Of a stretch of DNA of 64,000 bases, positions 52,843 to 57,101 are shown in pieces. The notes under the pieces were generated by a model. The model saw only the letters and a program-made list of their open reading frames with translations. It made no database searches and was not told the origin of the DNA. The stretch comes from Candidatus Endomicrobiellum guadaloupense. Its GTDB lineage: Bacteria; Elusimicrobiota; Endomicrobiia; Endomicrobiales; Endomicrobiaceae. Each line of letters starts with the position of its first letter. The stretch's first letter is position 1. The stretch is taken from positions 1,380 through 65,379 of the forward strand of contig JAITJN010000035.1 of the NCBI GenBank assembly GCA_031278895.1. The letters run 5' to 3'. A program made the translations under genes and the position numbers.

Positions 52843-53976
52843 TCAAATATTATTTAATTTTAAATACAAATTCTCATGCTGTTTAACACTTGTGTTTATA
52901 TCATAATCTTGACTAATGGAATTAAAACCCTTTAACCCCATATCTTTTAGAATATGCTTATCATTTAATAAATAAACAACGTTTTCAGCTGTCTTTTCAT
53001 AATCATAAGGTTCTATTAAAAACCCAGTTTCTCTATCTTTGACTATTTCTTTTACTCCATCTACTGCATTTGCAATAACAGGTATAGAGCAACACATAGA
53101 TTCAATAATAGTACAAGGTAAACCTTCCCAAAGAGATGTTAAAACAAAAATATCGCTTGCTTTAAGTATTTCTACAATATCGCTTCTCCAGCCAAGGATA
53201 AGAATTTTATATTTTAAATTTAAGCTTTCTATTAGAGCCTCAAGTTCTTTTCTTTGCTCTCCATCTCCAACTACCAAAAAAATAACATTATCAATCCTTT
53301 TAGATACAATTGAAGCGGCTCTAATAAAGTCTCTCAGATTTTTCTGCGGTTTAAAAGGGCCTATTGTAGTGACAACCTTCATATCTCTGCTAATACCAAG
53401 CTCAGGCTTAAATTCTGGATTAGGGACAAAACTTTTATAGAACTTTGTATCTATACCAGCTCTTATAAGCACAAACGTATCTTCTTTGGCTATCTTATAG
53501 TGCAATCCTTTTTTTATATCTTCTTTAGTTACTACGATTAATTTATCTGAAAACAACGCACAAAACTTTTCAAGAAATATATAAAAATTTTTAACAATCC
53601 AATTCTGCGTTTCATTGAAACCATATCCATGTATTGTGTGAACAATAGTTTTTACACCTGCAAGTTTAGCAGCAATTCTTCCAAGTATACCAGCTTTTGA
53701 AGAATGTGTATGCACAATATTAGGCCTTTCTCTTTTTAAAACAGTATAAATTTCAAAGAGAGTTTTTAAATCCTTTAGAGGAGAAATTTCTCTAACAAAA
53801 TCTTTTAGACTATAAAGCTCAATTTTTTTTGCAATTATACCGTCTAGAATCCCTCCATTACCCGCAATAATAAAACTATCAAAAATATCTTTATTAATAT
53901 TTTTTGCAACGTGCAAAGCTACTTTTTGAGCACCACCAAGTTCAAGTTTAGTGATAATATAACAAACTTTTATCAT
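52843..53976 (-). CDS. GT-B glycosyltransferase (GT4 family)
   Basis: 377 aa starting MIKVCYIITKLELGGAQK.. with the C-terminal ..SLWEGLPCTIIESMCCSIPVIA.. EX7E region. Confidence 0.85.
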   Translation of the reverse strand: MIKVCYIITKLELGGAQKVALHVAKNINKDIFDSFIIAGNGGILDGIIAKKIELYSLKDFVREISPLKDLKTLFEIYTVLKRERPNIVHTHSSKAGILGRIAAKLAGVKTIVHTIHGYGFNETQNWIVKNFYIFLEKFCALFSDKLIVVTKEDIKKGLHYKIAKEDTFVLIRAGIDTKFYKSFVPNPEFKPELGISRDMKVVTTIGPFKPQKNLRDFIRAASIVSKRIDNVIFLVVGDGEQRKELEALIESLNLKYKILILGWRSDIVEILKASDIFVLTSLWEGLPCTIIESMCCSIPVIANAVDGVKEIVKDRETGFLIEPYDYEKTAENVVYLLNDKHILKDMGLKGFNSISQDYDINTSVKQHENLYLKLNNI

Positions 53977-54010: not shown

Positions 54011-54194
54011 CTATATTGATTTTGTTAAGCATTTAAGAAACCACTCTTCTTCCATTGACTTTAGATATTTTAATGCTTCTTTTTCATCTGTAAAATTCTA
54101 ATGTTTCTTCTTCCTCATATCCTCTAAACTTCTCTTTTAACACTTCATGCACATTCTCATCGTCATCTAATATTACTTCCTCATCTCCATTCAT
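54011..54194 (-). pseudogene. Response-regulator receiver-domain remnant (frameshifted and truncated)
   Basis: Hand translation starting 27 nt after the kinase stop gives MNGDEEVILDDDENVHEVLKEKFRGYEEEETLEFYR* (54194..54084). It continues in the +1 frame as ..TDEKEALKYLKSMEEEWFLKCLTKSI*. This matches only the first ~55 residues of a receiver (..DDDE....L...L...GY.V....dg.EAL.yL..). The phospho-acceptor Asp region is missing. Confidence 0.5.
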
Positions 54195-54220
54195 TATTTC
54201 TATCTTGTTTACAAACCATC

Positions 54221-55720
54221 TTACATTGGGTTGTCTGCTTTTGGGAATGTAAGTATAAATTCTGTTCCTATACCTTCCCTAGATTCTATCTTTAATTTGC
54301 CATTCATTGATTTTATTGTAGACATTACCTGTTGCGTACCTATTCCATTTCCATATTCCTTTGTCGTTCCTACTTCTTCCCCTCTCATTAACTTCTCCGC
54401 CATCTCTTTGGGCATCCCTTGCCCGTTATCCTTCACTATTATCTCTACTTCTTCTCCTTTTTCTTCACACACTACTTCTATCTCTGCTTTCTTTCCTTCT
54501 ACTGCTTCTACACCATTGTTTATTAGGTTTGACATCATTCGTTCAAATTCTACTCTCTCTCCTTTGATAAATACTATTTTCTCTTCATACTTTATCTCTA
54601 CGTTCTTGTTAGTATACTCATGCTCCTTCCTTTCTATCAATTCTTTCAGACTCAAATTCACGTTTATTCTTTCTTCTTTCTTTTGAACAGTTCTTACTCT
54701 AGCAAGACCCTTTCTACTCTCTCCCTCTTTTATTTCTTTATATTTTTCCATCATCCTGCTTGCTATATCATGTATACTTCTTTTTAGCGAATCTAATATT
54801 CCATTTTCTTTATCTGTTAGCTTACTTTGTACTATATACTGGAATGCTCCCAATGCCGCTAATGGCGAATGTATATCGTGCGCTACTTCTTTTGCTATTT
54901 TACTCAGTTCTTTTTCTAATTTCAGTTTTGCTTCCAACTCTTCCTTCTCTTTCCTATCCGTTATATCTATTGAAACTCCTATGATTCCAATAACATTATT
55001 CTTATCATCATAAAGCGGAGATTTTCTTGTTAGCATTACTGCCTCTTTACCATTAGCTACTTTTCCTATCTCCAATACTTCTTCAGTTTCTCTATTATCA
55101 ATAATCCTCTGATCTGTTTTTCTGAGTATTTCCGCCACATATCTCCATGATAAATCATAATCTGTCTTGCCTGTAACCTCTTTAAAAGATTTAAATCCTA
55201 ACATTTCTGCTTCAGCTTGATTACAACCTAAATAAACTCCATTGATATCTTTCCAATAGATGCATCCTGGAGCATATTGTAAAATATTATTAACAGTCCA
55301 TTGTGTTTTTAATTCACTTTCTCTCTCTTCTTTTAATCTACGTTCTGTTATATCAACTGTCACTCCTATAATCCCTATAACCTCACCTTTATCATCGCAA
55401 AGAGGAGACTTCCTTGTTAACATTACCAATTTCCTATTACCACAACAAGTACCGTTTTCTATAATGTCTTCACATACTTTACTTTTCATAATTCTTTTAT
55501 CTGTTTCTCTCAAGACACCAGCAGTCTCTTTCCATGGCAAGTCATAATCTGTTTTTCCTATCATTTCTTCTGGAGAGCTTAGCCCTAACAACTCTGCTTC
55601 AGCTTGATTACAGCCCAGGTAAACTCCATTGATATCTTTCCAATAGATACAGCCTGGCACCATTTGTAAAATGTTGCTAATTTCAGCTTGATTTTTTCCC
55701 ATAATTATCCATTTATTCAA
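54221..55720 (-). CDS. Soluble sensor histidine kinase with two tandem PAS domains
   Basis: 499 aa with no TM segment. PAS x2 (..PGCIYWKDINGVYLGCNQAEAE..), H-box EVAHDIHSPLAAL, N-box NLINNGVEA, G1 DNGQGM and G2 GNGIGT. The track start is TTG at 55720. An ATG (MGKNQAE) lies at 55702. Confidence 0.9.
   Translation of the reverse strand: MNKWIIMGKNQAEISNILQMVPGCIYWKDINGVYLGCNQAEAELLGLSSPEEMIGKTDYDLPWKETAGVLRETDKRIMKSKVCEDIIENGTCCGNRKLVMLTRKSPLCDDKGEVIGIIGVTVDITERRLKEERESELKTQWTVNNILQYAPGCIYWKDINGVYLGCNQAEAEMLGFKSFKEVTGKTDYDLSWRYVAEILRKTDQRIIDNRETEEVLEIGKVANGKEAVMLTRKSPLYDDKNNVIGIIGVSIDITDRKEKEELEAKLKLEKELSKIAKEVAHDIHSPLAALGAFQYIVQSKLTDKENGILDSLKRSIHDIASRMMEKYKEIKEGESRKGLARVRTVQKKEERINVNLSLKELIERKEHEYTNKNVEIKYEEKIVFIKGERVEFERMMSNLINNGVEAVEGKKAEIEVVCEEKGEEVEIIVKDNGQGMPKEMAEKLMRGEEVGTTKEYGNGIGTQQVMSTIKSMNGKLKIESREGIGTEFILTFPKADNPM
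54950..55675 (-). repeat. Internal tandem duplication (two PAS modules, period 387 bp)
   Basis: For example, 55594-55675 and 55207-55288 read ctgcttcagcttgattaca[8 nt]aaactccattgatatctttccaatagat... in both copies. At protein level aa 16-128 and aa 145-257 align without gaps. Confidence 0.9.
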
Positions 55721-56408
55721 TAAATTTGACTGCTGAATATCCTTGTTTTAAAGACACATTTGAAGAAAATTGACTCTCTTTGTTATATATTTTCATTAAA
55801 AATTCTGAAGGTAAATCTTTATATACGTATAAGGATGATGAAACATTTAGAATTTCTGCAGTATTCAAATATATAGGGAGTTCCGCTATGAAATATTTTA
55901 CAGCTACCCTCACCGCTTCATCATCTGCATCCCCTTGGAAGCCTTTACTTGCTAATACTATCTTGGAAGTCGCTAAACATCCTTTCCTAAAATCCTCATT
56001 AGTCTCATATAATTTTTTATAAGTATCATGAAATTTTAAATATCTTTCATTTTTCATGAGTTCACTAATAAAGACTATCATATTGTTGGCTTCAACCTCT
56101 GGAATATTATTTGCCACTAAAGCTCTTATTGCTTTATTTTTTAAATTGTTATCATGTAATTTTGTCTTTTTTTCGGCTTTCTCTTGAGAATATCCCATCG
56201 CCTGTAGCGTGTACATAGAGATACCATCTGGTATACAAATATTTATTCTTTTAAAAGTTGACACCCCCCATGAAAAGATTTTTTTTAAATTCTCTTCTGA
56301 ATAATAACTGTTAAACGGACTTATGCCTATTAACGCATGTTCTTTTAAAACAAATATTTTTTCTGACTCGGAATTTGCAAAATTTAATACTGCCTTTTCT
56401 TTTCCCAT
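55713..56408 (-). CDS. tRNA-dependent cyclodipeptide synthase (CDPS)
   Basis: 231 aa. KEHALIGISPFNSYYSEENL matches the catalytic-Ser pocket of AlbC (GEHALIGISAGNSYFS) and YvmC (RRHVLVGISPFNSRFSE). AVKYFIAELPIYL matches the YxxxExP motif (YVLAEAPLF / YVIAELPFF). ..SSLYVYKD.. aligns with ..VLCYH.. / ..LLAYH... The size and single-domain architecture fit. GGAGAGG lies 7 nt upstream of the ATG. Confidence 0.85.
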   Translation of the reverse strand: MGKEKAVLNFANSESEKIFVLKEHALIGISPFNSYYSEENLKKIFSWGVSTFKRINICIPDGISMYTLQAMGYSQEKAEKKTKLHDNNLKNKAIRALVANNIPEVEANNMIVFISELMKNERYLKFHDTYKKLYETNEDFRKGCLATSKIVLASKGFQGDADDEAVRVAVKYFIAELPIYLNTAEILNVSSSLYVYKDLPSEFLMKIYNKESQFSSNVSLKQGYSAVKFIE

Positions 56409-56436
56409 AATAACCTCTCCATTCTAAATGTTAAAC

Positions 56437-56486
56437 ATTATACTACTTCTTTTCCAAATTATAACGATTACTTCTTATGAAGTCTA
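56437..56486 (-). promoter_or_regulatory. Candidate promoter region of the CDPS-kinase operon
   Basis: The minus strand has TAGACT-17 nt-TATAAT (56486..56458) and a second TATAAT at 56442-56437. A 6-1-6 palindrome AATGTT-T-AACATT lies between the -10 and the SD. By eye only. Confidence 0.3.
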
Positions 56487-56603
56487 TCCATCTTACCTAA
56501 CCCATACATCCTCTCTAATTCTACTATATAAGCTTCTTTTCTTTGCATTTAGATTACTGACTTAAGAGACTTTACAACACATAGCATATAAAAATATAAA
56601 TTT

Positions 56604-56666
56604 GATGTCAACAATACAATCATTTTACATCTTCCCATTGCGAATAACGATGTTACCAATACAATC
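56604..56666. repeat. Two 18-bp direct repeats, 45-bp period, upstream of the CDPS operon
   Basis: 56604-56621 reads gatgtcaacaatacaatc and 56649-56666 reads gatgttaccaatacaatc (16/18 identical). Confidence 0.7.
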
Positions 56667-56732
56667 ACGCCTTTCTTTATTACTTTTGAACTTATAGGGA
56701 AATAATACTTATTTCTAAAATACAGCTGTCAA

Positions 56733-57101
56733 TTATATACTAACAACAGCCGAAGAATACTCGCTTTCCCAAACTTCAACTTCGCATACTTTTGCAGTCT
56801 CAGTCTCTATTTGCTTTAATTGTTCATAAATAAATGCTGCTATATTTTCGGCTGTTGGATTTATTTTATTGAAGGGTTCTATTTCATTTAAGAACTTGTG
56901 GTCTAAATATGCAATAATTTTATCAAGATGCTTTTTTATATCCGTAAAATCTATAAGCAGACCCGCATTATCAAGCTTTGAACCAGAAAAGGCAGCTCTT
57001 ATCTTCCAGTTATGTCCATGAAGGTCTTCGCACCTGCCTTTATATTCTCTAAGGCAGTGCGCCGAAGCAAAATTTTTAGTTACTGAAAGTTTATATTTCA
57101 T
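56733..57101 (-). CDS. queD: 6-carboxy-5,6,7,8-tetrahydropterin synthase
   Basis: 122 aa with ..SAHCLREYKGRCEDLHGHNW.. and ..DHKFLNE.. Confidence 0.9.
   Translation of the reverse strand: MKYKLSVTKNFASAHCLREYKGRCEDLHGHNWKIRAAFSGSKLDNAGLLIDFTDIKKHLDKIIAYLDHKFLNEIEPFNKINPTAENIAAFIYEQLKQIETETAKVCEVEVWESEYSSAVVSI

Follow-up and report, generated by a model that had tools for sequence, protein, structure and literature searches.

A cyclodipeptide synthase coupled to a VqmA-related PAS histidine kinase: a candidate diketopiperazine signalling module in protist-dwelling bacteria

Introduction

A 64,000-nucleotide stretch of the genome of Candidatus Endomicrobiellum guadaloupense (contig JAITJN010000035.1, positions 1,380 to 65,379; hereafter the window) carries a gene for a cyclodipeptide synthase (CDPS) whose end meets the start of a gene for a cytoplasmic histidine kinase with two PAS domains. 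The two genes form an intact operon and represent a horizontally mobile module, composed of a CDPS and a kinase with VqmA-type PAS domains, joined at some loci by a PQ-loop membrane protein and at some by a receiver domain. On balance we favour, with modest confidence, the prediction that this module is a synthase/receptor signalling system for an untailored diketopiperazine.

Members of Endomicrobiellum (Elusimicrobiota) live as endosymbionts within flagellates of the termite gut. For 25 years diketopiperazines have been described as bacterial signals, on evidence drawn mostly from cross-talk with LuxR-type receptors or from ToxR, and we know of no dedicated synthase–receptor pair for such signals. 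The pair in the window first came to notice in a reading of the DNA letters alone (the original prediction), which proposed the synthase product as a candidate ligand for the adjoining kinase. Here we follow up that proposal by comparing the two genes, their neighbourhoods and their predicted structures with those of their relatives.

Results

A bona fide synthase, coupled to a kinase across two phyla

As judged from its sequence, the 231-residue open reading frame (ORF) upstream of the kinase is a bona fide CDPS and is predicted to produce a cyclodipeptide. The assignment made in the original prediction holds against both family profiles, Pfam PF16715 (169.6 bits, cut-off 27) and TIGR04539 (179.9 bits, cut-off 45), and the closest entries in the PDB are Cglo-CDPS (6EZ3) and BtCDPS (6ZTU). 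The catalytic residues S30, N33, Y172, E176 and Y196 are invariant across 25 homologues. Of these, S30, Y172, E176 and Y196 map to Ser37, Tyr178, Glu182 and Tyr202 of AlbC, in an AlbC sequence whose anchor residues agree with the text of PMC5816076. The NYH signature (Asn40, Tyr202, His203) is kept at its Asn and Tyr, and position 203 is occupied by Lys (SNYEYK), as it is in the core of the kinase-linked CDPS clade described below; outer members of that clade have His or Asn.

The substrate pocket of the window CDPS carries the motifs LGCPIIYY (P1) and TIVSDPE (P2), and the consensus of the linked clade is LGFPLLYF and TWVxDPx. No published consensus group in PMC5816076 matched; the motifs resemble those that carry Pro at position 67 and accept Trp, Pro or Leu, and no product was predicted from them. 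The labels "cyclo(Tyr-Tyr)" and "cyclo(Leu-Leu)" synthase found in databases were assigned automatically. The nearest CDPSs, at 79–81% identity, come from metagenome-assembled genomes (MAGs) of Candidatus Endomicrobiellum, and a copy that is 99% identical is present in another sample.

Read from the sequence, the CDPS stop codon (TAA, 55715–55713) lies within an 8-nt overlap with the kinase if the latter starts at TTG 55720; the alternative start, ATG 55702, is 10 nt beyond the stop. The two genes thus overlap or nearly abut, as first described, and overlapping kinase starts recur in relatives (8 nt in L007 and 4 nt in L012; L and P numbers denote homologues throughout). No terminator-like site was found between the CDPS and the kinase.

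This adjacency is far from unique to one genome. Eight CDPS homologues were looked up by exact sequence, and in all six that had readable downstream flanks a PAS_4–HATPase_c gene lies directly downstream. These six include two Endomicrobiellum contigs, an alphaproteobacterium, Candidatus Odyssella thessalonicensis and a plasmid-like contig with a single-domain receiver; the remaining two homologues are fusion proteins cut by contig ends. A broader scan of one genome per species yielded 80 CDPS loci, whose ORFs were scored with hidden Markov models built from six of the kinases. Wherever a scanned CDPS is at least 43% identical and flanking DNA is available, a PAS kinase adjoins it, on the same strand except in one Coxiellaceae MAG, and the CDPS loci of Legionella erythra and L. 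shakespearei also carry a PAS kinase. At Streptomyces, Nocardia, cyanobacterial, Bdellovibrio-type and other CDPS loci no PAS kinase was found (0 of 61).

A neighbour-joining tree gathers the 24 linked CDPSs in a single clade and places the 61 unlinked ones outside it. The clade spans two phyla and comprises Endomicrobiellum, Holosporales, Odyssella, Finniella, Coxiellaceae and Legionella plasmids, and the kinase adjoins or is fused to the synthase in every one of its 24 members with readable flanks. The co-occurrence that the original prediction proposed to test by neighbourhood mining exceeds chance (24/24 against 0/61; Fisher p = 1e-21, uncorrected for shared ancestry). A reciprocal search agrees: both of two PAS-kinase homologues, picked for long contigs only, have a CDPS just upstream.

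Synthase and kinase are also found within one polypeptide. CDPS–PAS–HATPase_c fusions occur in L019 (711 aa), L020 (746 aa), P0174, P0181, P0340 and P0381, and the reverse order, PAS–HisKA–HATPase_c–CDPS, in P0392 and the truncated L002. Seven of the best 150 family representatives are at least 400 aa long, and six of these seven are CDPS/PAS-kinase fusions. P0378 (440 aa), with a Sel1-repeat region and a CDPS domain, is the sole multidomain CDPS among the top representatives that has neither PAS nor kinase domains.

A second, distantly related CDPS subfamily has the same partner. At three of three loci, an XYP-type CDPS (L095, 583–1305; L096, 368–1117; L099, 5001–5711) lies directly upstream of a PQ-loop–PAS–PAS–histidine kinase fusion. 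In a profile search of the PDB these synthases match Fdum-CDPS (5OCD, E = 2.7e-67), and those of all three loci have no match to Pfam PF16715 even at E ≤ 1, so neighbourhood surveys based on Pfam will miss the XYP types. The upstream protein of L095 and L096 had aligned only weakly with the NYH-type alignment in hhalign (12.8% probability); the PDB search resolved it as an XYP CDPS.

The PAS domains of the kinase are closest to VqmA

Pfam recognizes two PAS_4 domains and a HATPase_c domain (66.6 bits, residues 389–495) in the window kinase, with the N, G1 and G2 boxes at residues 398, 431 and 457. HisKA is not called by Pfam in this protein and is called in the homologues L009, L071, L097 and P0392. 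The window kinase has no hydrophobic segment (maximum Kyte–Doolittle value over 19 residues, 0.92), in keeping with the soluble dual-PAS kinase originally described, and transmembrane segments are missing from all kinases compared. In the termite-gut alphaproteobacterial "FACS" assemblies (P0177, P0179, P0184, P0198 and P0206) there are several paralogues of the kinase core of 800–900 aa, some with REC and some without PAS_4; the kinase family has expanded beyond the CDPS-linked copy.

PAS1 and PAS2 share 60% of their amino acids and 72% of their nucleotides, and a direct repeat of 214 nt with 72% identity joins them. The original prediction took this for a recent duplication. The identities and the grouping of the domains argue otherwise: PAS1 and PAS2 each cluster with their own counterpart in other Endomicrobiellum species, and the duplication is old within the genus. 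It postdates the acquisition of the module, which came from a single-PAS hybrid-kinase type like that of termite-gut alphaproteobacteria.

When the window PAS region was searched against all PDB sequences with phmmer, the top entries were Vibrio cholerae VqmA (6UGL, 6IDE and 6KJU, E ~8e-9). VqmA of phage VP882 (7DWM) matched residues 157–257 in PAS2 (E 8e-5), and the next family by sequence was BvgS (1e-3). Structure prediction led to the same protein. With the AlphaFold model of PAS1 (predicted local distance difference test score, pLDDT, 90.5), Foldseek placed VqmA at all of ranks 1–6 (E 1e-10 to 1e-9) with query-normalised TM-scores of 0.81–0.83, ahead of NifL (1e-7).

The autoinducer 3,5-dimethylpyrazin-2-ol (DPO) is sensed by VqmA, a cytoplasmic receptor. 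F67 and F99 stack on the DPO ring, K101 hydrogen-bonds its 2′ carbonyl, and the K101R substitution abolishes binding (bioRxiv 10.1101/2019.12.19.881847). We scored conservation of this pocket over 34 CDPS-linked PAS domains, in VqmA numbering. The equivalent of K101 is kept in all 34 domains, that of K23 in 33 and that of D71 in 32, and D85 is replaced by Glu throughout (34/34). F116 is replaced by Gly and H97 mostly by Met, and the two stacking residues have given way to Leu or Ile (F67) and to Thr or Ser (F99). We read the PAS pocket as homologous to that of VqmA, with the polar anchors retained and the aromatic sandwich lost. With the F67 and F99 contacts gone, we do not predict that the domain is a receptor for DPO itself; a pocket of this kind would fit a non-aromatic diketopiperazine with bulkier side chains. 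Covariation between the CDPS pocket and the PAS pocket, which yields four matching groups, is wholly confounded with phylogeny and was not used.

The departures from the VqmA pocket also suit an arrangement in which the kinase is the regulator rather than the receptor of the synthase product. Its PAS domains would sense another cue, such as a host metabolite, redox state or oxygen, and would control the activity or expression of the CDPS, allosterically in the fusions; the cyclodipeptide would then act as an effector on the host or on competitors, leaving the cell through the PQ-loop protein. The module is without a DNA-binding output, which makes control of the CDPS at the protein level conceivable, and host-manipulating dipeptides have been proposed for the CDPSs of intracellular bacteria (PMC2922099). 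However, the PAS domain falls specifically within the only PAS type of solved structure for which binding of a small heterocycle derived from two amino acids is known, its ligand-anchoring Lys is invariant, and at most loci the CDPS is a separate protein with no known phospho-acceptor domain. The PQ-loop partner adds evidence on both sides.

A recurrent PQ-loop partner

A PQ-loop (SemiSWEET-like) membrane protein of 90–103 aa lies directly beside the module in six distinct loci from two phyla, belonging to Endomicrobiellum, Holosporales/Holosporaceae and another alphaproteobacterium. In the three XYP-linked loci a PQ-loop domain is instead fused to the N-terminus of the kinase. Roughly two thirds of the module loci, the window included, are without a PQ-loop gene.

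A PQ-loop protein beside a synthase fits export, as the effector arrangement would have it. Where it is fused ahead of the PAS kinase, its position is better explained by ligand being delivered to the sensor. We consider control of the CDPS by the kinase an unlikely explanation of the module.

The same partner bears on a third possibility, a cell-autonomous circuit. In such a circuit the cyclodipeptide would be a bound, cofactor-like ligand supplied by the CDPS, much as the bacteriophytochrome kinase BphP receives biliverdin from the haem oxygenase BphO, or its level would report the pool of charged tRNA, and the kinase would read the physiological state of its own cell instead of population density. 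Single-polypeptide fusions in both domain orders, translational coupling of the two genes, the cytoplasmic location of the sensor and the many loci without a PQ-loop gene would all be expected of it, and the substrates of CDPSs are aminoacyl-tRNAs (PMC5816076). Against it, a PQ-loop partner, whether beside the kinase or part of the same polypeptide, implies movement across the membrane, and ligand binding by VqmA is reversible and serves signalling. Diketopiperazines without tailoring can generally cross membranes, which makes their retention within the cell doubtful. We regard a purely internal circuit as quite improbable.

Loss of the receiver-like domain and continued selection

Downstream of the window kinase, positions 54090–54242, in a frame other than that of the kinase, align with the linker and the first ~45 residues of a C-terminal extension that is fused to the kinase in alphaproteobacterial homologues. 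In tblastn searches the C-terminal extensions of L019, L003 and L017 match this segment, the hybrid kinase L019 with 35% identity over 51 aa (E 1e-17, linked to the kinase end). A pseudo-protein joining kinase and vestige gives blastp E values of 1.7e-10 to 7.7e-10. The part of the vestige from 54011 to 54089 was aligned by eye only. The out-of-frame match to a fused extension indicates that the window kinase is a former hybrid kinase minus its receiver-like domain. The original prediction had described the remnant of a response regulator here; a receiver-like remnant is indeed present, but it is the decayed C-terminal domain of a formerly hybrid kinase.

The extension family aligns with REC in hhalign, including the acidic pocket and the acceptor Asp (63% probability, E 7e-5), and is not recognised as Response_reg by Pfam; with the Pfam result blank and hhalign at this level, we call it receiver-like rather than REC. 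Other Endomicrobiellum kinases also stop right after the CA domain. Relatives with a receiver have it as a separate REC protein (L009 and L024) or as REC-Hpt (Legionella), and the alphaproteobacterial kinases of the module carry the divergent receiver-like extension.

Both genes are under purifying selection despite the loss of the receiver. Among five Endomicrobiellum species, the ratio of nonsynonymous to synonymous substitution rates (dN/dS) is 0.15–0.39 for the CDPS and 0.19–0.44 for the kinase. For the window against the four other species, which likewise have no receiver, it is 0.15–0.22 and 0.21–0.36, respectively.

These values argue against viewing the window copy as the decaying remnant of a horizontal acquisition that has lost its receiver, has no PQ-loop gene and no longer signals. 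The frameshifted vestige would fit such decay, as would the lack of both a REC ORF and a PQ-loop gene, neither of which was found in the 64-kb window, and the differing chromosomal sites of the module across Endomicrobiellum species. Yet both ORFs are intact, a 99% identical copy is present in another sample, the catalytic and kinase motifs are all kept, and the dN/dS values against receiver-less relatives stay within 0.15–0.36. Decay of the window copy thus appears highly improbable.

Mobility of the module

In the window, L011 and L007 the module occupies the queD site; L008, L012 and L014 have it elsewhere. A plasmid-like contig with RepA/ParA carries it too, as do plasmids of Legionella pneumophila LPE509 and L. 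lytica. Within Endomicrobiellum, the window CDPS is closest to that of L012 (80% amino acid identity), whereas the window kinase is closest to that of L007 (67%, against 59% for L012). This mismatch in affinity suggests recombination within the module among Endomicrobiellum lineages.

In Candidatus Odyssella thessalonicensis (L004, 1–12866) the module adjoins an HTH_17/Toprim-DUF927 primase-type mobile element, and a Colicin-DNase/WHH toxin gene and a SUKH immunity gene are nearby. A CDPS nearly identical to that of Odyssella has been reported from a giant-virus genome, PLMV (PMC6403294). On the LPE509 plasmid (NC_020522.1; L097, 7734–8273), a 96-aa ORF without a Pfam match overlaps the end of the hybrid kinase, followed on the other strand by a csrA-like "carbon storage regulator" gene; the two are possible downstream partners of the module.

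Organisation of the window locus

The features of the locus are collected in Table 1. In the intergenic region upstream of the CDPS, promoter-like sites lie at 56611–56583, 56486–56458 and 56434–56407; the number of sites in the promoter scan was not above the shuffled expectation. The final ~35 nt before the CDPS ATG (TATAATGTTTAACATTTAGAATGGAGAGGTTATT) are conserved in L011 and L007.

Upstream of the pair lies queD (56733–57101) and downstream a glycosyltransferase gene. None of the neighbouring genes adjoining the pair encodes a tailoring enzyme, which agrees with the original prediction. The glycosyltransferase (52843–53976) was considered for such a role and rejected, being absent at every other locus. 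In L007 (5358–9640) the CDPS–kinase pair is inserted between queD and queC–queE. The upstream junction at queD is common to the window and L011; in the window the gene that follows the pair is the glycosyltransferase, not queC or queE.

Base composition is strongly skewed over the kinase. Between 54000 and 55500, the GC skew reaches -0.59 and the AT skew -0.44 on the plus strand. The coding strand of the kinase has a very strong purine bias, far exceeding that of neighbouring genes, which reflects the Glu/Lys-rich DHp–CA region.

Table 1 Features of the CDPS–kinase locus in the window
Feature	Coordinates	Strand	Description
queD (PTPS)–CDPS intergenic region	56409..56732	-	Promoter-like hexamers and conserved ribosome-binding-site segment before ATG
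CDPS gene	55713..56408	-	231 aa, tRNA-dependent cyclodipeptide synthase, NYH-like subfamily, Lys replacing His203
Sensor histidine kinase gene	54221..55720	-	499 aa, cytoplasmic, PAS1-PAS2-DHp-CA (DHp putative)
PAS1	55319..55690	-	Residues 11-134, VqmA-type PAS
PAS1 pocket equivalents			K28, E41, L70, D74, E88, M100, T102, K104
PAS2	54935..55303	-	Residues 140-262, same PAS type as PAS1; VqmA K101 equivalent is K233
H-box-like AHDIHSPL	54860..54883	-	Residues 280-287, presumed phospho-acceptor His in DHp helix
CA domain	54236..54556	-	N box NLINNGVEA, G1 DNGQGM, G2 GNGIGT
Receiver-like vestige	54011..54242	-	Frameshifted and truncated; linker and N-terminal part, formerly fused to kinase

Discussion

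The reading of the pair as a synthase with its sensor, put forward in the original prediction, is supported by two features that emerged from the wider comparison: a PAS domain whose closest relative of solved structure is VqmA, and a PQ-loop protein as a recurrent third partner. From these arrangements we infer the ligand, the direction of signalling, the role of the transporter and the output as follows. The CDPS would condense two aminoacyl-tRNAs into an untailored 2,5-diketopiperazine, which would equilibrate across the inner membrane by diffusing or, at loci that have one, with the help of the SemiSWEET-like PQ-loop facilitator. One or both cytoplasmic PAS domains of the co-translated kinase would bind it, with the invariant Lys (K104 in PAS1 and K233 in PAS2, equivalent to K101 of VqmA) hydrogen-bonding a ring carbonyl. 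Binding may alter autophosphorylation of the kinase, and phosphate would pass to a receiver domain that is fused, separate or, in Legionella, part of a REC-Hpt protein. Such a circuit would report the concentration of a self-made signal and thereby cell density or confinement within a host cell.

Several observations weigh against a diketopiperazine circuit. A fold search with the dual-PAS model returned generic tandem-PAS proteins alone (DosP, NifL and LOV-PAS proteins); this result is uninformative on the ligand, and the fold search required the single-domain model. The aromatic residues that stack on DPO are replaced, so the pocket differs and the class of its ligand is a matter of prediction. 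The PAS-kinase family has many paralogues, and it has PAS–GerE relatives (P0126 and P0170), of which one has no CDPS nearby. The window itself holds neither the PQ-loop gene nor the REC ORF that the full circuit would employ, and a synthase fused to its own receptor would be unusual for classical quorum sensing. Finally, the linkage in the main clade could all trace to one ancestral event; the independent fusions and the second CDPS subfamily support the adjacency without relying on a single ancestral linkage.

The module resembles several known systems, each in part. Like DPO–VqmA of V. cholerae and vibriophage VP882, it has a cytoplasmic receptor with a homologous PAS domain in which K101, K23 and D71 are conserved, and the known ligand of that system, a small N-heterocycle with a six-membered ring, is assembled from two units derived from amino acids. 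The output differs, being a DHp–CA kinase where VqmA has a C-terminal LuxR-type HTH, and so does the presumed signal, a tRNA-derived diketopiperazine whose CDPS is linked or fused to the kinase; DPO, in contrast, requires threonine dehydrogenase, whose gene is unlinked to vqmA.

With CqsA–CqsS of Vibrio and LqsA–LqsR–LqsS of Legionella the module shares a signal synthase gene beside a sensor kinase and a receiver, and cassettes of autoinducer synthase and sensor kinase are found in Legionella and are mobile. The CqsS and LqsS kinases are membrane-integral and sense alpha-hydroxyketones made by a pyridoxal phosphate-dependent acyl-CoA transferase, whereas the sensor of the module is soluble or PQ-loop-anchored and PAS-based and its synthase is an aminoacyl-tRNA-dependent CDPS. 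The albonoursin (AlbABC), pulcherrimin (YvmC–CypX) and mycocyclosin (Rv2275–CYP121) pathways have the CDPS family and its catalytic residues in common with the module, which differs in having no oxidase, P450, methyltransferase or further tailoring gene and in being partnered with signalling and transport proteins. BphO–BphP provides a precedent for one operon encoding a ligand-making enzyme and a PAS-containing histidine kinase; the ligand there is a covalently bound chromophore for light sensing, and nothing suggests a chromophore in the module. The module is thus akin to the autoinducer synthase/sensor kinase cassettes, with a receptor domain homologous to VqmA, but a member of none of these systems, from which it departs in its synthase chemistry, its soluble PAS-kinase architecture and the lining of its pocket.

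Parts of this association have been glimpsed before. A survey of CDPS neighbourhoods listed PAS among the commonest non-biosynthetic Pfam domains within 2.5 kb of CDPSs and suggested, in one sentence, a possible role of CDPS products in quorum sensing (Skinnider et al. 2018, BMC Genomics 19:45; PMC5767969). It describes no kinase, clade, fusions, PQ-loop partner, VqmA homology, host range or experiment. CDPSs were also noted in intracellular bacteria, with no report of fusions (Aravind et al. 2010; PMC2922099). No account of the module emerged from literature searches that paired CDPS with histidine kinase, two-component, VqmA, Endomicrobium or PQ-loop. The statement in the original prediction that, to its author's knowledge, no dedicated linked CDPS/two-component pair had been described was overstated, PAS domains near CDPSs having been noted already.

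More tentatively than the signalling role itself, we propose that the module could be the first dedicated diketopiperazine system, with a CDPS as synthase, a PQ-loop protein as facilitator and a VqmA-type PAS kinase as receptor, spread horizontally among unrelated protist-dwelling bacteria and sensing density or confinement. The occurrence of the module on plasmids of the culturable L. pneumophila LPE509 and L. lytica makes this idea directly testable. If it is true, the triad of CDPS, PAS kinase and PQ-loop protein would be the missing synthase–receptor pair for diketopiperazines, CDPSs would gain a role in signalling beside secondary metabolism, and VqmA-type PAS receptors would reach beyond vibrios and vibriophages. 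The distribution of the module points to chemical self-sensing inside protist cells, including by obligate endosymbionts with reduced genomes.

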